From an uncultured Nitrospiraceae bacterium (GTDB lineage Bacteria > Nitrospirota > Thermodesulfovibrionia > Thermodesulfovibrionales > Dissulfurispiraceae), in NCBI GenBank assembly GCA_963727805.1, contig CAVSHF010000003.1, positions 1,920,001 to 1,984,000 on the forward strand: 64,000 nucleotides of DNA, read 5' to 3'. A program made the translations under genes and the position numbers. Shown one piece after another: positions 24,560-36,785 of this stretch (positions within the stretch are counted from its first letter, which is position 1; every line of letters begins with the position of its first letter). A model generated the notes under the pieces. That model had not been told where the DNA came from and made no database searches. It worked only from the letters and a program-made list of their open reading frames with translations.

Positions 24560-24904
24560 CTATTTCGTTGCGGGTTCAGCCTTCTTCTCGGCTGCTTCCT
24601 TCTTGTCGCCAGCCTTCTTCTCGGCTGCTTCCTTCTTCTCACCAGCCTTCTTGGCTGCTGCCTTCTTTTCGGCCTTTGCCTTCTTGGCTGCTGCCTTCTT
24701 TTCAGCTGCTGCCTTCTTGTCGGCTGCCTTCTTTTCGGCTGCTGCCTTCTTGTCGGCTGCTGCCTGATCGTCAGCTGCCTTCTTGTCGGTTGCCTTCTGT
24801 TCTACCGTTGGAGCCTTCGTGTCCATAGCCTTGTCGGCTGCGAAAACTGCGGTTACGGAAAGAGCGAACAGCAAACATACCATCAGTGCTATTACTTTCT
24901 TCAT
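24560..24904 (-). CDS. Secreted low-complexity Ala/Lys/Glu/Asp-rich protein (Asr- or histone H1-like repeats)
   Basis: Signal peptide MKKVIALMVCLLFALSVTAVFA; (D/E)KKAAA repeats; GGGAGGTG SD; own promoter and terminator. Confidence 0.85.
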   Translation of the reverse strand: MKKVIALMVCLLFALSVTAVFAADKAMDTKAPTVEQKATDKKAADDQAAADKKAAAEKKAADKKAAAEKKAAAKKAKAEKKAAAKKAGEKKEAAEKKAGDKKEAAEKKAEPATK

Positions 24905-25104: not shown

Positions 25105-25446
25105 CTATTTGCCGAGTCGCTTGTTAATCAGGTCCTTTAGAGCGTCTTTTGACTGCCCGCCAACTGTTCGATCTGCTTCTTTGCCATCGAGATAAATAAT
25201 AACCGTGGGCGTGCCGCTAACCTTGCATTGAACGGCAACTGACGTCTGTTCATCACAATTCAGCTTTGCAAATCGCGCCTTACCCGCCATCTCTGCCGCC
25301 ACTTCTTCGTAGATCGGGGAAAATATTTTGCAATGTCCGCACCACGGCGCCCAAAAATAGACGAGCATAATCCCGCCGATCTTCTCCACTTCGGACATCC
25401 ATGTATCGGCCTTTAGTTCAACGATAATATTAGCCATGGGAACCAT
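25105..25446 (-). CDS. trxA: Thioredoxin
   Basis: FWAPWCGHC active site, cis-Pro GTPT; start may be 25437. Confidence 0.88.
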   Translation of the reverse strand: MVPMANIIVELKADTWMSEVEKIGGIMLVYFWAPWCGHCKIFSPIYEEVAAEMAGKARFAKLNCDEQTSVAVQCKVSGTPTVIIYLDGKEADRTVGGQSKDALKDLINKRLGK

Positions 25447-25656: not shown

Positions 25657-25665
25657 TGTTATAAT
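25657..25665 (+). promoter_or_regulatory. Extended -10 promoter (TGnTATAAT), probably giving a leaderless transcript
   Basis: TGTTATAAT ends 6 nt before ATG 25672; no SD present. Confidence 0.65.
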
Positions 25666-25671
25666 TATTTC

Positions 25672-26040
25672 ATGAGGAAGATTATCATAATCCTGCTATT
25701 ATTCCCCACAGTCGCACTGGCGCAACCGACAATAATATTTGACACTGAAACCCATGATTTCGGGATAGTACGGGGTGACGAACCTCTCAAACATACCTTT
25801 GAGGTCTGGAATAAGGGGACAGAAGACCTGATTATTAAGAGGCTTGACGCACCCTGAGGATGTACTGCCGCAATGGCTAGTTCGAGTCAGATCAAACCCG
25901 GAGAAATAGGAAGCATAACTGTAACGGTGAATGTGCAACAGTACATCGGCAAGGTTACAAAGGAGATTGCGGTCTATAGTAATGACCCAGGAAAGCCGCG
26001 GGTGAACCTGCTGCTCAAGGCTGAAATTAGGAGCAATTGA
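25672..26040 (+). CDS. Secreted DUF1573-domain protein, probable selenoprotein (in-frame TGA at 25855-25857)
   Basis: MRKIIIILLLFPTVALAQPTIIFDTETHDFG..HTFEVWNKGTEDLII..AP-U-GCTAA..IKPGEIG.ITVTV..GKVTKEIAVYSNDP..VNLLLKAEI; TGA sits at the first Cys of the family CGCT motif and family similarity continues in frame after it. Confidence 0.85.
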
Positions 26041-27433: not shown

Positions 27434-28801
27434 ATGGCACAAAAAATTGCCTTATTGGTTTTGGGAGACGTTTTGATATCGATCCTGGCGCTTTGTGTCG
27501 TTTTCCAATATATCGCATCCCAATTTGAGAGTGCCAGGGGGATGCCATTTCCAGGAATCCTGGAGAGTATTGTTTTTGTCTCCGTAACACTTTTTTCCTC
27601 ATATTTCCTAGAGCTGTACAGTCGGAAAAAAGTCTTTAGATTTAATTTGAAAGAGATGCCTGCCATTATCCTTCTTGCCATTGCAGTTTCCTTCTTTGTA
27701 TTGACGTCTATTTTCTTTATGTTCCCTTCCATAGCACTCGGACGACGCGCATTGCTCCTGTCCCTAGGCATCTACGGGCTATTGCAGTGCGCATGGCACA
27801 TCTCATATAAATCCTTTCTAAATCTGTCGGGAATGAAGCAAAAGGTCCTTATACTCGGGATTGGCGACCTCGCGAGAAAGATGGAACAGATCATGTTCTT
27901 GCATAAGACACAGTATGCCTTTGCCGGATACTATGACTTGTCATCGCAAATTTTACAGGATAGCACGTCCCCATTAGAGGCCACATGCGGAAGTCTTGTG
28001 GAGACCGCTAAAAGAGAGAAGATAGATAAGCTTGTGGTAGCCGTTACGGAACGAAGGGGAGTATTACCTCTCAAGGAACTCCTGAACTGTAAGTTTGCCG
28101 GTGTTGATATTGTCGATGCGCCATCTTTTTATGAAGAGGTCATGGGTAAAATGCTTCTGGAAAGCATTGCACCGGGCTGGTTCATATTCGCAGATGGGTT
28201 CAAACTGAATCAAACAATAAAATTCTTCAAGCGGCTCTCCGACATCTTTTTGGCCTCTGTCGGCCTCATACTCACTGCCCCTTTGTTTCCACTTGTTGCA
28301 CTGCTGATCAAGATCGATTCTAAAGGTCCTGTCTTTTACCGTCAGTTGCGGGTTGGAGAGGGGGAAATTAATTTTATGCTCATTAAATTCAGAACGATGA
28401 AGCAAAACGCGGAAACGCAAAGCGGTGCTGTCTGGGCCCAAAAGCATGACACGAGGGTAACTAGAATAGGGAGCATCCTCAGAAAGGTGCGCTTGGATGA
28501 ACTTCCGCAGTTTATTAATGTGTTGAAAGGTGAAATGAGTTTCATCGGTCCGCGCCCGGAAAGGCCTGAGTTTGTTGAAAAGCTTCAACGAACGATACCA
28601 TATTACATCCATAGGCATTTCGTTAAACCTGGCATTACCGGTTGGGCCCAAATAAAGTATAGGTATGGCGCCTCCGAGGAGGATTCTCTCGAAAAACTCC
28701 GTTATGATTTATACTATATTAAGAATCTCTCACTGTTGCTGGATACGTCGATCACAATAGATACGATTAAAGTCGTTCTCTTCGGAAAAGGAGCGCGATA
28801 A
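27434..28801 (+). CDS. Priming polyprenyl glycosylphosphotransferase, PEP-CTERM/XrtA-system type (TIGR03013-like)
   Basis: N-terminal TMs, ERRGVLP..ELL.CK, KFRTM, RLDELPQ..NVLKGEMSFIGPRPERP, KPGITGWAQ. Confidence 0.92.
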   Translation: MAQKIALLVLGDVLISILALCVVFQYIASQFESARGMPFPGILESIVFVSVTLFSSYFLELYSRKKVFRFNLKEMPAIILLAIAVSFFVLTSIFFMFPSIALGRRALLLSLGIYGLLQCAWHISYKSFLNLSGMKQKVLILGIGDLARKMEQIMFLHKTQYAFAGYYDLSSQILQDSTSPLEATCGSLVETAKREKIDKLVVAVTERRGVLPLKELLNCKFAGVDIVDAPSFYEEVMGKMLLESIAPGWFIFADGFKLNQTIKFFKRLSDIFLASVGLILTAPLFPLVALLIKIDSKGPVFYRQLRVGEGEINFMLIKFRTMKQNAETQSGAVWAQKHDTRVTRIGSILRKVRLDELPQFINVLKGEMSFIGPRPERPEFVEKLQRTIPYYIHRHFVKPGITGWAQIKYRYGASEEDSLEKLRYDLYYIKNLSLLLDTSITIDTIKVVLFGKGAR

Positions 28802-28810
28802 GGAGGAAAA

Positions 28811-29641
28811 GTGAAAACACGGCTTTTGTTGACAATGATAATTCTGCTTGGATTGCTTGGCACAGCCTATGGTGAAAGCTATGTGATAGGGCCAGAAGAT
28901 ATGCTTCAGATCAACGTCTGGGGCAATTCTGAATTGAGTGTCAGCATCCCTGTCAGGCCGGACGGCATGATCTCAGTACCCTTGGTTGGCGATGTGAAGG
29001 CAGACGGTCTTACGCCTGACCAGCTTAAGGAGTTTCTGGAGAAGGAGTATATGAAGTTCATCAAGGCCCCTAACGTAAGCGTCGTGGTAACTGCTATAAA
29101 CAGCTTCAAAGTCTATATCGTAGGCGGTGGAATATCAACCGGCGACAAAGGCGGCGGAGTATCATCGGGTATGATAACCCTCCGGAGAAGCACCACACTC
29201 CTGCAGCTCCTAGCCCAGATCGGGTCTCTCCAGGATGCTGATCTGAAAAGTGCCTATCTTTTGAGGGCTGGGAAGAAAATGCCGGTCAACTTTATGAAGC
29301 TGATCGAAAATGGTGATGTAACGCAGGACATCGATCTCAAGCGAGATGATGTCGTTTTCATTCCGCCCGATCTTGAAAACCGCATCAAGGTGGTCGGCGC
29401 AGTAAAGACCCCGGGGATGTTCCATTATATAAAGGGCATGACCGCTCTTGATGCTGTATTGAGCGCCGGAGGGTTCACAGAATTCGCTAGCCAGAATAGT
29501 GTCATAATCATCAGGCAGGAAGGCAGTGAAGTCAAGCATATCGCAGTAAAATTAAAGGACGTCATTAAAGGCGGCGATATGAGTCAGAACGTTCCACTAA
29601 AGCCCGGAGACATGGTAAACGTTAAATCGGGTATATTTTGA
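28811..29641 (+). CDS. Polysaccharide biosynthesis/export protein (Wza-like, SLBB repeats)
   Basis: YVIGPED.LQINVW, VRPDGMISVPLVGDV, two SLBB domains; AGGAGG SD, GTG start. Confidence 0.9.
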   Translation: MKTRLLLTMIILLGLLGTAYGESYVIGPEDMLQINVWGNSELSVSIPVRPDGMISVPLVGDVKADGLTPDQLKEFLEKEYMKFIKAPNVSVVVTAINSFKVYIVGGGISTGDKGGGVSSGMITLRRSTTLLQLLAQIGSLQDADLKSAYLLRAGKKMPVNFMKLIENGDVTQDIDLKRDDVVFIPPDLENRIKVVGAVKTPGMFHYIKGMTALDAVLSAGGFTEFASQNSVIIIRQEGSEVKHIAVKLKDVIKGGDMSQNVPLKPGDMVNVKSGIF

Positions 29642-29660
29642 TAGATTGTGAGGGGGAGTC

Positions 29661-31232
29661 ATGTCGGAAAGTAGCCTGAATACTTTTGATATAAAGCGTT
29701 ATTGGGGACTCATCTTGCAGCGGAGATATCTGGCCCTATCAGTAGCCTTGACGGTTTTGTCCCTGTGCACGCTGGCCAGTTTTATTTTGCCCAAAGTCTA
29801 TGAAGCGACTTCTACGATTTTTATTCAAAGAAGCACGCTCATCAATCCTCTCATCAAGGGAATTGGGGTTACGAGCAATTCGGAGGAGGGACTCAGGACA
29901 CTTAGGGACAGCATAACCAGCAGAAACATAATCAGCCGAGTGATTGAAAAGCTCAATCTGGACGCAGGTGACGTAAAATCGCAAAAGCACGAAGGGCTTG
30001 TCAGCGCCATAAAGAATAATATTTCGATTACTGTTAAAGGTGGGGGGGGCAGTCAAGGAGCTGATCTCTTCATAATATCGTACCGCGGGTCCGATCCGAA
30101 GAAAGTCAGGGACATCGTTAACACACTTGTGGAAGAGTATATCGCCGAAGCTCTTGGCTACAGAAGGTCCGATGCCTCCGGGGCCTTTGAATTTGTCCAA
30201 AACCAACTTGCTGAGTATAAGACCAAGCTTGAGGAATCAGATAAGGATATCCGGGCATTCAGAGAGAGGAATCCGGACATAGTGCCGCAGACCGAAGGTG
30301 CGGTTCTTACGCGGATGGAGGCCTTTCAGACCCAGAAGATCGATGCGGATATCAAGGTCCAGGAGTTAATGCGCAGGAGGGACAACCTGAAAAAGCAATT
30401 AACTGGAGAGAAGGAACTCACTGTTGCTTTTGTGACCCGTGAGGGATCGCCCGAAGCTCGCCTATCCTATCTGAACAGTCAGCTAGTCCTTCTGACAACC
30501 AAATATACGGACCAGCATCCCGAGATACGTAAAACAAAAGCAGAGATAGAAGAGCTAAAGAAACAGATATCACATGCTAAATCAGCCCCTGCCGATACCG
30601 GGAGTTCTGAAACATCAACCCTCAACCCTATATACCAGCAATTAAAAGAGGACCTTGCGAGAACCGATGCGGAAATTGATTCACTTAAGGCCCGTTCCTC
30701 TGAACTGTTGCACCAACAGCAACAGGCCAAAAGTGTCTTGGGTGGCATGCCGAAGGAACAGGAAGAATGGACTAAGCTTCAAAGGGACAGAACTGTCTAT
30801 CAACATATCTACGACGATTTGCTGAATAAGGTCGAGACTGCTCGTGTCTCCAAAGATCTGGAGTTCACTGACAAGGCCACTACATTCAAAGTCGTCGACC
30901 CCGCAGTGCTGCCCGTTTTTCCTGTCCAGCCCGATAGGATCAAGTTCATACTAGTTGGAATATTTCTGGGTATCGCTGCCGGTGTAGGGACCGTCCTCAG
31001 CATAGATTATCTAAATCATTCCTTTAAGGACGAGGATTCCATCGAAAAGAGTCTCAACTTACCCGTACTCGTGGCAATACCCTCGGTGGTTATTGAAGGG
31101 GATACCATGGCGGTGAGGCAGCTCGATAAAAAGGTGATGATTGCCGCATCCGTATATTTAGGCATTATCCTTTTGCTGCTAGTGAAAGAAGTGTTGTACA
31201 AATATGTTGGCGTCACAATTATCGGTCTTTAG
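29661..31232 (+). CDS. Polysaccharide chain-length determinant (GumC/Wzc N-part, XrtA-system type)
   Basis: Two TMs flanking coiled coil, YTDQHPEI, FKVVDPAVLP. Confidence 0.9.
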   Translation: MSESSLNTFDIKRYWGLILQRRYLALSVALTVLSLCTLASFILPKVYEATSTIFIQRSTLINPLIKGIGVTSNSEEGLRTLRDSITSRNIISRVIEKLNLDAGDVKSQKHEGLVSAIKNNISITVKGGGGSQGADLFIISYRGSDPKKVRDIVNTLVEEYIAEALGYRRSDASGAFEFVQNQLAEYKTKLEESDKDIRAFRERNPDIVPQTEGAVLTRMEAFQTQKIDADIKVQELMRRRDNLKKQLTGEKELTVAFVTREGSPEARLSYLNSQLVLLTTKYTDQHPEIRKTKAEIEELKKQISHAKSAPADTGSSETSTLNPIYQQLKEDLARTDAEIDSLKARSSELLHQQQQAKSVLGGMPKEQEEWTKLQRDRTVYQHIYDDLLNKVETARVSKDLEFTDKATTFKVVDPAVLPVFPVQPDRIKFILVGIFLGIAAGVGTVLSIDYLNHSFKDEDSIEKSLNLPVLVAIPSVVIEGDTMAVRQLDKKVMIAASVYLGIILLLLVKEVLYKYVGVTIIGL

Positions 31233-31243
31233 GGAGGCAAGAA

Positions 31244-32122
31244 TTGAGCAGAATCGAAAAGGCTCTGGAAAAAGCAATCCAGATGAGGCAATCAACCAAG
31301 ACTTCTTATCCTGAACGGGAAAATAATGTTGAATTAAAAGGACCATCCTCACTGCCGGAATTTCAAATCAGGGAAATCATGATTGATCCATCCACGGTAG
31401 ATCGGCATGTGGTATGTATTACAGACCCGCATTCTGCCGCCTCCGAACAGTACCGTAAGCTAAGGGCGCGCATACTCGCAGCCACAAAGCAGGATTTTCA
31501 CAATACCATTATGGTGACTAGTGCCGATGTTGGAGAAGGAAAGTCAATAACCTCGATAAATTTTGCCGTTGCCCTAGCACAGGAAATGGATCACACTGTT
31601 CTGCTGGTCGATGCCGATTTAAGGAAACCTTCGATCCATAGATATCTCGGTATAAAAGCGGATCGCGGCTTAAGCGACTATCTATCTGGGAAGGTGGACC
31701 TGTCAGACGTTCTTATACATACAGGGATCGGCAAACTGGTGCTTCTGCCGGCGGGCACGCCATCCCGGAACCCGGCTGAGCTCCTCTCTTCCAATCGTAT
31801 GAAGGACCTTGTGCAGGAGATGAAACACCGTTATAGCGACCGGTATATTATCTTTGATACATCGCCCGTGCTTGTATCAGCCGATGCGATCTCGATGAGC
31901 AGTCATGTCGACGGAGTTCTTTTTGTCATTTATGCGGCAAAGACTCCAGAGCATACAGTTAAAAAGGCGATCGGGCTGCTTCAAAGCGCCACCATTCTGG
32001 GCGTTGTTTACAATAACGTGCCGGACTATCTGGGTAAAAATCTTAATCCGTATAACTATTATCGGTACCGTCAGGATCCCGATAACCCGACAAAAACAAA
32101 CCACAAGGACGATAAACACTAA
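31244..32122 (+). CDS. BY-kinase tyrosine autokinase (CpsD/CapB, XrtA-associated)
   Basis: MSRIEKALEKA, EQYRKLR, GEGKS, LVDADLRKPS, C-terminal Tyr cluster PYNYYRY. Confidence 0.92.
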   Translation: MSRIEKALEKAIQMRQSTKTSYPERENNVELKGPSSLPEFQIREIMIDPSTVDRHVVCITDPHSAASEQYRKLRARILAATKQDFHNTIMVTSADVGEGKSITSINFAVALAQEMDHTVLLVDADLRKPSIHRYLGIKADRGLSDYLSGKVDLSDVLIHTGIGKLVLLPAGTPSRNPAELLSSNRMKDLVQEMKHRYSDRYIIFDTSPVLVSADAISMSSHVDGVLFVIYAAKTPEHTVKKAIGLLQSATILGVVYNNVPDYLGKNLNPYNYYRYRQDPDNPTKTNHKDDKH

Positions 32123-32125
32123 CCA

Positions 32126-33295
32126 ATGTACACATCCTTTTTTGGTCTAACCTGCAATCCCTTTCACCTTACGCCCGATCCCGAGTTTCTTTTTCTCAGC
32201 AGGGATCATAAGAAGGCGCTGACTTTCCTAAATTATGGCATATCTTCAAACACGGGATTCATCCTTGTTACTGGAGAAGTGGGGACCGGTAAGACCACTC
32301 TCATCAGAAAGATCTTACAAGGATTACAAAAAGATATTAAAGTGGCCCGCGTTAATAATACACTAGTGAACTCTGAGCAGCTCATATCTATGATCAATGA
32401 CGATTTCGGGATCGAGACAAACGGCAAGGACAAGACCAGAATGCTCAGAGACCTCTCCGATTTTATTATCAACCAATATGCGCAGGGATTGAGAACAGCC
32501 CTCATTATCGATGAGGCCCAAAATCTCTCCTCAGAACTGCTTGAAGAAATCAGGCTCCTTTCAAATCTCGAAACCGACAAATCAAAGTTACTCCAGATTA
32601 TTTTGCTGGGACAGCCGGAATTGAAAAAAACCCTCGCCGTACCTGAACTAAGACAACTCAGGCAGCGAATCAGTATCAGCTGCCATATCAGTCCCCTCAA
32701 CAGGACAGAATCGGAGGAGTATGTTTTACATCGCCTCGAAATTGCCGGCAATAGGAAGGCAGTCAGTTTCCTTGACGGCGCCTTCGATGCCCTTCATTCT
32801 GCTACGCGGGGCATTCCGCGACTCATCAACATTTTTTGTGATTTCCTGCTTTTAGCTGCCTTTACCGAGGGAACGAAGGACATATCCGTGGACATGGTAA
32901 CAGAAATAGCGGCAGATCTCGATTCCGAAAAAAACTACTGGAGCGACACCCGGATGGAAGTAGAAAAAGACAGCGGAGTGAATGTCCTGCAGCCCGTTCT
33001 CAGGAGGCTCGACAATATCGAATCAGCCATGCGCAGGCATAATGGTTCAAACGTTAATGTCGAGGAAATTGCCACGAAAGTGGCCAATTTGGAGGACATA
33101 GTTGCGACTATTGAAAAATCCAGGTCCGAGCCTCGGGGACCAGTTTCTCCCGGCGACAACAGTTTAGTACAGAACATTCTGAGTGAGATCGGAGACCTTA
33201 AAAGGAAACTTGTCGAGATTGAACATAAGCAGCTGTTGACCCTTGAGCCTCAAATCCCCAAAAGGAAGTATTTCTGGTCGAAAATATTCAATTAA
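32126..33295 (+). CDS. ExeA-like AAA ATPase, PEP-CTERM locus type
   Basis: MYTSFFGL..PF.LTPDP, GEVGTGKTT, IIDEAQNL, LLGQPEL, GIPRLINIFCD. Confidence 0.92.
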   Translation: MYTSFFGLTCNPFHLTPDPEFLFLSRDHKKALTFLNYGISSNTGFILVTGEVGTGKTTLIRKILQGLQKDIKVARVNNTLVNSEQLISMINDDFGIETNGKDKTRMLRDLSDFIINQYAQGLRTALIIDEAQNLSSELLEEIRLLSNLETDKSKLLQIILLGQPELKKTLAVPELRQLRQRISISCHISPLNRTESEEYVLHRLEIAGNRKAVSFLDGAFDALHSATRGIPRLINIFCDFLLLAAFTEGTKDISVDMVTEIAADLDSEKNYWSDTRMEVEKDSGVNVLQPVLRRLDNIESAMRRHNGSNVNVEEIATKVANLEDIVATIEKSRSEPRGPVSPGDNSLVQNILSEIGDLKRKLVEIEHKQLLTLEPQIPKRKYFWSKIFN

Positions 33296-33310
33296 GCCCA
33301 CTGATAGTCC

Positions 33311-33547
33311 ATGTGCGGGATAGCAGGAATAGTTAACATAGGACGTAATGCTGAAGTCGCCAGTTTGCTGCTCGACAAGTTGATAGCGGCTGTACAAGAT
33401 TGCGAACCTGACGGTTTCGGCCTTGATAAAGACAACAACATCTGCTTTATACCATGTCAGCCACCGAGGTCATCATACGTCTCTTATGGAAATCACAGGA
33501 CAGAATACCGGAAATTTCTTAGCGGACAGTTTGCATTTGCAATTTAG
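33311..33547 (+). pseudogene. Degraded N-terminal fragment of an asparagine synthase-like amidotransferase
   Basis: MCGIAGI start, eroded PDGFG, then GQFAFAI-TAG where the family has GxFAFAIW; rest absent. Confidence 0.7.
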
Positions 33548-33594
33548 GAAAAAAAATGACAACAATATACCGGATCAGCCCTCTCTTTTAACTC

Positions 33595-34443
33595 ATGTTT
33601 AACGCCCTTACTATAGATGTGGAAGACTATTATATGGTATCCGCCTTTGCAGACCGGATATCCTTTGATGACTGGAGCGGCTACGAAAGCCGTGTCGAGA
33701 GGAATACACATAGAATTCTCGGCCTCTTGAATGAGCACGACGCCAAAGGCACTTTTTTCGTTCTTGGCTGGATAGCGGAACGATTTCCTGCACTGATCAG
33801 AGAGATTCATTCCCAGGGTCATGAGATTGCCAGTCACGGTTATAATCATCGGCTCGTGTACGGTCTCTCGCCTCAAGAATTCAGAGAAGATCTGAGACTA
33901 TCGAGAGATATTCTTCAAGACATTACTGGGGTGCCTGTGCTGGGGTATCGGGCTGCAAGCTATTCGATCGTCAAGCGGAGTATCTGGGCTCTCGACATCC
34001 TGATAGAAGAGGGCTTCGTCTATGACTCGAGCATATTTCCGGTCTATCACGACCGCTACGGTATGCCTGGAGCGAAGCGCCACCCGCATGTTGTCACAAG
34101 GCCGGTTGGTTCAATCATCGAATTCCCCCCCGCTACTCTGAAGGTCGGAAAGTCAGTCTTCCCGGTAGCTGGCGGAGGGTATCTGAGATTGCTCCCTATG
34201 TCTTTAACACGGCATGCTATGCGTCGGCTAAATGAACACGAAAAACAGATAGCGGTCGTTTATCTGCATCCTTGGGAGATAGATCCTAATCAGCCGCGCA
34301 TTGAAGGTAAGTTACTGTCTCGACTCAGGCATTATGTCAATCTTGATTCCACCTTTATGAAACTCGACACGTTGCTTACTGATTTTAAATTCGAGTCGCT
34401 GAGAACTCTAATGAAGCGCCACAGCCCTCAATTTATATTTTAG
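33595..34443 (+). CDS. Polysaccharide deacetylase, PEP-CTERM/XrtA locus type (DUF3473)
   Basis: NALTIDVEDY, TFFVLGWIAER, HEIASHG, GGGYLRL, YLHPWEID. Confidence 0.92.
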   Translation: MFNALTIDVEDYYMVSAFADRISFDDWSGYESRVERNTHRILGLLNEHDAKGTFFVLGWIAERFPALIREIHSQGHEIASHGYNHRLVYGLSPQEFREDLRLSRDILQDITGVPVLGYRAASYSIVKRSIWALDILIEEGFVYDSSIFPVYHDRYGMPGAKRHPHVVTRPVGSIIEFPPATLKVGKSVFPVAGGGYLRLLPMSLTRHAMRRLNEHEKQIAVVYLHPWEIDPNQPRIEGKLLSRLRHYVNLDSTFMKLDTLLTDFKFESLRTLMKRHSPQFIF

Positions 34444-34538
34444 ACAATGAGATGCTCTGTAGCAATGATACCCAGTTGTTTAGTTGAATAATATTGCTGA
34501 AGAGCAACCAATTGATGAAAAAAAGGAGGATTAGCCCG

Positions 34539-35576
34539 ATGATAAATAAGATTAATACACAGCTTTCACATGCGCCAAAAAAATGGCTTATTACCGGAGT
34601 GGCAGGATTTATCGGCTCGAATCTTCTAGAACAGCTACTCAGACTCGGTCAAACCGTCGTCGGTCTCGACAATTTTTCTACCGGTAAGATGCAGAATCTT
34701 CTTGATGTAAAAGAGCTGGTTGAGTCAGACGCGTGGGACAGTTTTTCACTTCTAGAAGGTGACATACGGAACGTCGATACTTGTAAGAATGCTTGCATTG
34801 GCGTCGATTATATTCTTCATCAAGCCGCATTGGGAAGCGTCCCACGATCGATAGAGGATCCTCAAACGACTCATCAATCAAACATCGATGGTTTCCTCAA
34901 TATGATTATTGCCGCCCGTGATGCACACGTTGATCGCTTTGTTTATGCAGCTTCTTCATCCACATATGGGGACAATCCGGTTCTGCCTAAAAGAGAGAAC
35001 TCAATCGGCAAGCCGCTTTCACCTTATGCCGTGACAAAATATGTGAATGAGCTTTATGCCGATGTCTTTGCCCGACTATATAATATGAAGTGTATTGGCT
35101 TGCGATACTTCAATGTATTCGGACGCCGGCAAGATCCCATGGGCGCCTACGCTGCTGTTATCCCGAAGTGGATCGTCCAACTGCTCGACCGCGAGATTCC
35201 GCTCATCAACGGTGATGGGGAGACGAGCCGGGATTTCTGCTACATTGATAACGTAATCCAGGCAAACATACTTTCAGCAACAACAGAACGGGAAGAGGCA
35301 CTTAATCAGGTCTATAATATTGCAGTCGGGGAAAGGACTACTCTGAACGAACTCTTTTTCATGATCAGGAGATTAATGTCAGCTTACGATGATGGGGTGA
35401 AAGAGATAATGCCTCAATACGGTCTCGAAAGAAGTGGTGACGTCAGACATTCCCTGGCCGATATCAAAAAAGCTACGGAACTCCTTGGATACGATCCCGT
35501 TTACTCGGTACAAGAAGGAATGCAGAAAACTGTAGAGTGGTTTTATAAAATGAGATATTCCTGTACAAATACATAA
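34539..35576 (+). CDS. UDP-GlcNAc(A) 4-epimerase, WbpP/TviC type
   Basis: [51 protein letters not shown] before ATG 34539. Confidence 0.9.
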
Positions 35577-35630
35577 AGCCCGTTGCACGCCTCCACTTAG
35601 TTTGAGCCCGGGGTGGATTAGCAGATAAAG

Positions 35631-36785
35631 ATGGCCCGTCCCTCGATGGAAATACTTTTCTTTTTATCACTACTGGCAGTCCTATATGTTTATGCGGGAT
35701 ATCCAATGATGATCTACTGTCTTTCTCTGCTGAGGAGAAAGACAGTGTTATGTGGAAACTATGAGCCATCTGTTACAATCTTGATCGCAGCCTACAATGA
35801 AGAACGTTGGATTGATGAGACGATTCGCAACAAATTGGCACTCGACTATCCGCTTCAAAAACTGGAAATCATCGTAGTTTCTGATGGGTCAACGGATGAA
35901 ACTGACATGATTGTAAAGCGTTACCTGAACCAGCACGTCAGGTTGATCAGACAGGAACCTCGTGCAGGGAAGACAGCCGCACTCAATAGTGCAGTGAAAG
36001 AGGCAAAAAGTGAGATATTGGTCTTTGCTGATGCGAATTCGCTTTATGAACGGGATGCCTTGCGTAAGCTGATGCGGAACTTTGCAGATGCCTCTGTGGG
36101 GTATGTGACAGGGAAAATGGTATATACATATTCAGATGGAACTCTTGTGGGTGACGGGTGCTCAGCCTATATGAAGTACGAAAACCTACTTCGCTTCTAT
36201 GAGACGAGGATTCATTCAGTGGTAGGGGTTGACGGAGGTGTCGACGCAATACTTAGAAAGCTGTACCGTACTATGAGGCCTGATCAACTCCCGGACTTTG
36301 TACTGCCGCTCCGTATAGTGGAACAGGGATACAGGGTAGTGTACGAGCCAGAGGCAGTTCTTAGGGAAGCTACTTTAAAAGCAGGAGCAGATGAGTACCG
36401 AATGCGTGTCAGAGTATCATTGAGAGCCCTCTGGGCGCTTTGGGATATGAGGCACTTATTGAACGTGAGAAAATATGGCATATTTTCCTGGCAATTGCTG
36501 TCGCATAAGGTGCTACGGTATCTGGCAATTCTATTTCTGATCGGGCTATTCATATCAAACATCTGGCTGTGCAGCGACAGCGCAGGCTATACCGCAGTCA
36601 TGGTTGTTCAGACGATATTTTACTCTATGGCTCTTTTGGCTGCACTTACTCAGGAACTGACATGTAAGATAAAATTATTGTATGTTCCATACTATTTTAC
36701 CTTGATCAATTTGGCTGCCGGACATGCTTTGGTGAAATTTTTGCTCGGAGAAAAACAGGTTATATGGACGCCCAGAAAGGGATAA
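35631..36785 (+). CDS. Glycosyltransferase family 2 with TM helices
   Basis: IAAYNEE, VSDGSTD, FADAN, C-terminal TMs. Confidence 0.9.
   Translation: MARPSMEILFFLSLLAVLYVYAGYPMMIYCLSLLRRKTVLCGNYEPSVTILIAAYNEERWIDETIRNKLALDYPLQKLEIIVVSDGSTDETDMIVKRYLNQHVRLIRQEPRAGKTAALNSAVKEAKSEILVFADANSLYERDALRKLMRNFADASVGYVTGKMVYTYSDGTLVGDGCSAYMKYENLLRFYETRIHSVVGVDGGVDAILRKLYRTMRPDQLPDFVLPLRIVEQGYRVVYEPEAVLREATLKAGADEYRMRVRVSLRALWALWDMRHLLNVRKYGIFSWQLLSHKVLRYLAILFLIGLFISNIWLCSDSAGYTAVMVVQTIFYSMALLAALTQELTCKIKLLYVPYYFTLINLAAGHALVKFLLGEKQVIWTPRKG

Follow-up and report, generated by a model that had tools for sequence, protein, structure and literature searches.

At positions 25672 to 26040 of the window (the whole 64,000-nt stretch of DNA analyzed here) lies a gene for a DUF1573 (PF07610) protein that is predicted to be exported and whose reading frame passes through a TGA. 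The initial annotation had taken it for a hidden, probable selenoprotein gene, and the frame runs as proposed there: from ATG 25672 through TGA 25855-25857, which is codon 62 in the context A-P-U-G-C-T-A-A-M, to TGA 26038-26040, for a product of 122 aa. The features, in order of position, are as follows.

25657..25665, + strand: extended -10 promoter-like box TG-n-TATAAT, separated from the ATG by 6 nt, recognized from sequence
25672..26040, + strand: predicted DUF1573 selenoprotein gene, 122 aa, read through TGA 25855
25672..25722, + strand: predicted cleavable signal peptide, residues 1-17, from sequence and hydropathy
25735..26025, + strand: DUF1573/PapD-like (ASH-type) Ig β-sandwich, residues 22-118, from PF07610, AlphaFold2 and the match to 2qsv
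25855..25857, + strand: in-frame TGA, predicted Sec62, from the Sec machinery, TGA/Cys interchange and selA tracking
25861..25863, + strand: Cys64 of the U-G-C motif, from the sequence; U-G-C occurs in 53/62 TGA-form domains
25874..25889, + strand: candidate bacterial SECIS hairpin with a 5-pair stem, a 6-nt loop (25879-25884) and G at loop position 2
26038..26040, + strand: true stop TGA; in relatives a TAA, TAG or TGA closes the frame at or near this point

Reading frame, start and signal peptide

The PF07610 match spans the TGA, covering residues 22-118 with an E value of 5.9e-25 and a score of 87.6 bits (cut-off 26.1), and an alignment of 43 relatives places the TGA in the column where the Cys forms have the first Cys of CGC, upholding the earlier proposal for its place in the DUF1573 motif. 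Third codon positions carry most of the divergence in both halves of the gene in all seven relatives compared (7/7), and amino acid identity to these relatives is 52-70% over the part that precedes the TGA and 51-70% over the part that follows. Because the third-position divergence and the identity are both kept on either side of the TGA, the read-through frame is not a chance occurrence; as judged from these alignments, the 3' half of the gene is intact and under purifying selection.

A translation table 11 call starts at ATG 25528 and stops at the TGA, yielding a 109-aa product identical to database protein P0051. Standard callers had been expected to split or truncate the gene, and the database entries for this gene and its relatives are indeed separate halves, which our reading would correct. 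We prefer ATG 25672 over ATG 25528 as the start because a signal-peptide-like stretch follows it, because relatives start at a similar position (61-68 codons 5' of the TGA in most loci) and because ATG 25528 is altered in contigs of sequencing run X3. The public sequencing runs each cover less than half of the stretch, and only their contigs were compared: one X3 contig bridges the TGA, no change at 25855-25857 appears among 40 of the 87 rows of differences, and an RNA run contains two matching contigs, both of which begin 3' of the TGA and carry no information on expression.

Upstream of ATG 25672 there is no Shine-Dalgarno sequence, and the mRNA is likely leaderless, as suggested by the extended -10-like box. 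Such a box lies 4-8 nt before the candidate start in 17/53 UGC loci versus 86/1970 long open reading frames of the source genome, where a shifted control finds it in 34 of the 1970, with the proviso that the relatives are not independent; the plain -10 pattern occurs in 38/53 UGC loci, a raw count without a background. The signal peptide proposed earlier is predicted here from the sequence, in which MRK precedes a hydrophobic run (Kyte-Doolittle 9-mer peak of 3.4) and A-L-A stands before Q-P.

Selenocysteine and the SECIS hairpin

The source genome (G000; 3.89 Mb, 100% complete) has Sec machinery: the search for selA, selB, selC and selD that the initial annotation had called for returned selA, selB and two selD genes above curated cut-offs, together with a tRNA-Sec, which is the only tRNA with a UCA anticodon among the 47 found. 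Both selD genes are full length and each has an in-frame TGA (C3:482960-483883 and C5:157506-158420), and a paralogue of our gene at C5:538504-538872 (L025), 58.5% identical, has a TGA at the same codon. A match to the gene was found in 19/41 near relatives and 131/301 genomes of the phylum. The loci examined comprise the best-scoring ones plus 40 picked by hand and are not a random sample; the phylum domains scoring at least 45 bits to the profile number 91, a count that excludes 7 second Ig domains that score low and lack the motif, as well as 4 weak Ig matches and 2 duplicate loci. At the motif column, 62 of these 91 have TGA and 29 have Cys, the interchange that the proposed tabulation was meant to reveal, and Bacteroidota domains have Cys in 16/16. 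The same TGA is found across the 62 domains down to 22% identity, as part of U-G-C in 53, U-x-x-C in 6 and other motifs in 3; the second Cys is absent in two, L021 (U-G-A) and the second domain of L107. A selA gene is present in 44/47 TGA-form genomes versus 6/32 no-stop genomes, counts in which kin are not independent and in which 27 of the 32 no-stop genomes have a directly read Cys. Four genomes of family f19 (G041, G050, G067 and G082) have selA yet a Cys-form domain, and genome G003 encodes two U-G-C DUF1573 copies and a distant U-A-C form. No relatives of the gene were found in viral contigs; a plasmid search returned 8 matching records, all from Bacteroidota, and a scan of named genomes with a single protein gave 10 matches, all Bacteroidota Cys forms.

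Downstream of the TGA, the consensus fold of 39 aligned TGA forms is a hairpin whose loop begins 21 nt after the UGA. Over its 7-pair structure, the two sides pair in 87% of cells and have both changed in 25, a level attained by 0/500 shuffles and by none of six slid controls, all of which are lower, although these covariation figures are inflated by relatedness and by the structure having been derived from the same sequences. A cleaner control is the comparison between forms: all five stem pairs can form in 45/53 TGA forms versus 0/28 Cys forms. The first loop codon is AGT in 48/53 TGA forms. The published bSECIS model, as given in the accessible portion of its description, has a loop of 3-9 nt, a stem of 4-16 bp, G in the first two loop positions and a spacing of 16-37 nt from the UGA (PMC13188914), and our hairpin, with a loop of 6, a stem of 5, G at loop position 2 and a spacing of 21, fits this geometry. 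The stem of this particular copy is weak, of the weakest kind observed, with a G-U at pair 22-33 that is the sole such case among the 39. Its hairpin alone folds at -2.8 kcal/mol, lies outside the minimum-energy fold and has a z score of +1.0, and its 60-nt region folds at -8.4 into another structure, with the family consensus at -7.24; the published free-energy limit is -7.5 kcal/mol, for a region that may differ from those folded here. Folding the SECIS region of this copy by itself gave no signal over shuffles, so the SECIS signal comes solely from the alignment. The paralogue L025 has a stronger SECIS stem and its own -10 box by the start codon.

Taken with the Sec machinery, the interchange of TGA and Cys and the tracking of selA, a covarying SECIS confined to TGA forms argues that TGA 25855-25857 is almost certainly read as selenocysteine, as first proposed. 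The recoded Cys that the initial annotation offered as a second option fares poorly, as does the broader idea that a changed code or a suppressor tRNA has UGA read as Cys or Trp: nothing beyond the Cys correspondence at the motif column speaks for such decoding, whereas the only UCA tRNA among the 47 is tRNA-Sec, the gene itself ends at a TGA, the TGA form tracks selA and the SECIS is absent from Cys forms, leaving it a very slight chance. An origin by nonsense mutation, pseudogene formation or assembly error could draw on the 3/47 TGA-form genomes without a selA match (G265, G159 and G181), and especially on G181, 86% complete, in which none of selA, selB, selD and tRNA-Sec was found. However, selB, selD and tRNA-Sec are found in G265 and a selD with a TGA in G159, and G204, a 99%-complete congener of these two, has selA; moreover, the same TGA recurs in 62 domains, and the database protein P0044, which comes from a different assembly and is 95% identical, stops at this very residue. 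Since both the TGA and the 3' half are conserved, this explanation is refuted, and we assign it next to no probability. A subtler alternative grants that the family consists of true selenoproteins but holds that this copy is poorly read through and yields mostly a truncated 61-residue product, with the C5 paralogue doing the work. The replacement of G-C by G-U at pair 22-33 (1/39), a mismatch at 19-36 and a hairpin outside the minimum-energy fold would fit poor read-through, as would the X3 contigs with C at 25887, some of which may represent the paralogue. Five stem positions nevertheless remain pairable, the loop G and the 21-nt spacing are kept, and the 3' half is maintained under purifying selection, all of which make poor read-through improbable.

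Family membership and fold

The initial annotation left it undecided whether this family was already catalogued as selenoproteins. It is: OS_HP2, first predicted as a new family in Olavius algarvensis symbionts in 2007 (PMC1976440, Table 2, consulted in part), corresponds to pfam07610 with the motif UxC (PMC2398784, likewise), and DUF1573 with exactly the UGC motif is listed as a predicted selenoprotein in the accessible sections of PMC9312934 and PMC13188914, which there cite the family only to the 2007 computational paper. Our gene thus adds a member to a family already catalogued as predicted selenoproteins and founds no new family; it shares with OS_HP2 the Pfam domain, the U-G-C motif, a single Sec and a bacterial SECIS downstream of the UGA, and its likeness to the listed members (CAB1076174.1 and MDJ0815992.1) was judged by domain and motif. 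It differs from OS_HP2 as described in those parts of the papers, which report neither an export signal nor a leaderless start and are silent on fusion to heme, linkage to DsbA and the UxxC variant; U-x-x-C is likewise not among the motifs in the published lists, as far as those sections go. The curated NCBIfam model NF041425 (OS_HP2_seleno) scores our protein at 79.6 bits against a 100-bit cut-off, which none of the phylum genomes reached (0/61). Scores below the cut-off put this branch beyond the reach of the curated model, which misses the whole of a lineage that is common in the phylum, with matches in the 131/301 genomes noted above. Cys-form DUF1573 domains (C-G-C), found in Bacteroidota and in lineages of the phylum that lack sel genes, have the same fold and motif position at 26-46% identity but differ in having Cys for TGA, in lacking the SECIS and in being often tandem or fused. 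No function for DUF1573 was found in the literature searched, from which subscription papers were mostly absent and whose supplements may hold more members.

AlphaFold2 models the mature chain, with Cys in place of Sec, as an eight-strand β-sandwich with a pLDDT of 96, and the motif lies in the loop joining strands 36-42 and 48-52. The best solved structural match is 2qsv, a Porphyromonas gingivalis protein of unknown function (Z of 15.0, rmsd of 1.4, 100 residues aligned), which has the same fold, although Cys is missing from the motif position of the domain that aligns; ASH/PapD-like domains of HYDIN, VesB, OCRL and CEP192 follow with Z scores of 10-12.6. Identity to 2qsv and to these domains is 11-23%, and the shared fold shows no function: the solved neighbors are non-redox interaction domains, none of which points to one.

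A predicted periplasmic thiol-redox role

Gene context around the free-standing gene is uninformative. Among 43 loci there is no conserved operon and no neighbor that marks a partner; uvrA, PCMT, rhodanese and fumarase genes recur only within subgroups, and the thioredoxin (25105-25446) and PilZ genes that adjoin our gene are not beside it in the other loci. Fused relatives are more telling. A module with two CxxCH motifs and a cytochrome c match is fused to 32/91 domains (10 TGA, 22 Cys), and a DsbA-like gene with a CxHC motif lies directly upstream in 14/22 Cys-form diheme loci (L044, L049, L052, L065-L069, L073, L077-L079, L081 and L082). In the other Cys diheme loci, a DsbA-like domain is fused in frame (L075), a DsbA-like gene directly follows (L071), contig ends cut off two loci and four have none. 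The linkage spans three families and may represent a single inherited one; at the TGA-form diheme loci, no DsbA-like gene was found within the 1.5-2 kb fetched (0/10). The diheme module has no match in the source genome.

The diheme fusion and the DsbA-like neighbor in relatives lead us to favor a thiol-redox relay in which hemes would act as the sink. We posit that SelB bound to the hairpin brings Sec-tRNA to the UGA, a step that we hardly doubt, and that the 17-residue signal peptide very probably exports the chain and is then cleaved off to leave 105 residues. The mature protein is predicted to fold as a PapD-like β-sandwich that presents U62 and C64 in a loop between two strands. There, the pair would probably cycle between selenol/thiol and selenenylsulfide, exchanging electrons with periplasmic DsbA- or thioredoxin-like proteins; in relatives with a fused heme module, the electrons would then pass to c-type hemes, and the free-standing form of the source genome would need a separate partner. 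Arguing against the relay are the lack of a diheme match in the source genome, the variable neighbors of the free-standing gene, the 0/10 TGA-form diheme loci with a DsbA-like gene, the two domains devoid of the second Cys, the SCO1/SenC fusions of U-x-x-C variants and the non-redox nature of the solved structural neighbors. Most predicted selenoproteins are considered likely to be redox-functional in the accessible portions of two surveys (PMC9312934, PMC13188914). On balance, an exported Ig-fold protein whose Sec-Gly-Cys loop serves as a periplasmic thiol-redox relay is our preferred reading of the sequence.

A rather less likely interpretation accepts the selenocysteine but has the U-G-C loop bind a soft metal, most likely Cu(I), so that the protein would be a periplasmic metal carrier or chaperone. 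Copper is suggested by U-x-x-C variants fused to SCO1/SenC in L104 and L105, and metal handling more generally by the Cys forms of one family, which adjoin a PF03773 permease (L083, with similar N-termini in L084, L085, L087 and L088). These contexts belong to more distant subgroups, however, whereas in the subgroups nearest to our gene the domain stands alone or is joined to a heme module, and neither copy in the source genome is flanked by a metal-handling gene. The thiol-redox relay remains the reading that we favor. The U-x-x-C variants (L022 and L103-L107) lie at the C terminus of larger exported proteins whose N termini resemble SCO1/SenC or a carboxypeptidase-regulatory domain, and their SECIS is displaced by 3 nt; L107 has two TGA-bearing domains in a single frame.

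How the fused relatives might operate invites a bolder proposal. DsbB and VKOR are the oxidants of DsbA, and we speculate, with considerable reserve, that (U/C)-G-C DUF1573 provides the active site of a DsbA oxidant that is soluble, works without quinone and passes electrons to c-type hemes, fused to it in many relatives and acting in trans here; it would constitute a third route to disulfides in the periplasm beside DsbB and VKOR, with Sec as an upgrade in Sec-using lineages. The likeness would extend only to the role proposed for relatives with fused hemes, namely to accept electrons from a DsbA-like protein via a Cys/Sec pair: there is no homology, and DsbB and VKOR combine a membrane helix bundle with quinone, unlike a soluble Ig domain with hemes. 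Neither DsbB nor VKOR has a match in the source genome, and among 61 phylum genomes DsbB is matched in 2 and VKOR in 10. A phylum-wide replacement of DsbB/VKOR by DUF1573 was rejected because these 61 genomes display no complementary distribution; family f22 has DUF1573 in 7/7 and weak VKOR matches in 7/7, and family f27 has none of DUF1573, DsbB and VKOR. The pairing of a diheme fusion with a DsbA-like neighbor makes a thiol-to-heme hypothesis directly testable.

Several further observations concern the source genome, its relatives and the window. In G003, the distant two-domain DUF1573 gene with U-A-C (L029) lies between a rhodanese gene, a multiheme cytochrome gene and a split UGSC-family gene, in a selenoprotein-rich cluster. 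In the source genome, C3 at about 1807900-1808500 (- strand) holds what is presumably a DsbA-like gene whose frame contains a TGA (U-P-H-C), with a hairpin downstream; the gene comes after what we take to be a formate-dehydrogenase-like operon and directly before a presumed cytochrome c peroxidase-like gene. Genes for secreted, Lys/Ala-rich low-complexity proteins with alike N termini lie near both DUF1573 paralogues, at 24560-24904 (- strand) of the window and at C5:537926-538291, and L007 has an antisense trace of one; their presence by both paralogues possibly reflects a shared ancient duplication. Downstream, the window contains at 27434-36785 a large cluster that we take to be an ordinary one for polysaccharide export and synthesis, with a sugar transferase, an export protein, a chain-length determinant, an ATPase and a deacetylase.
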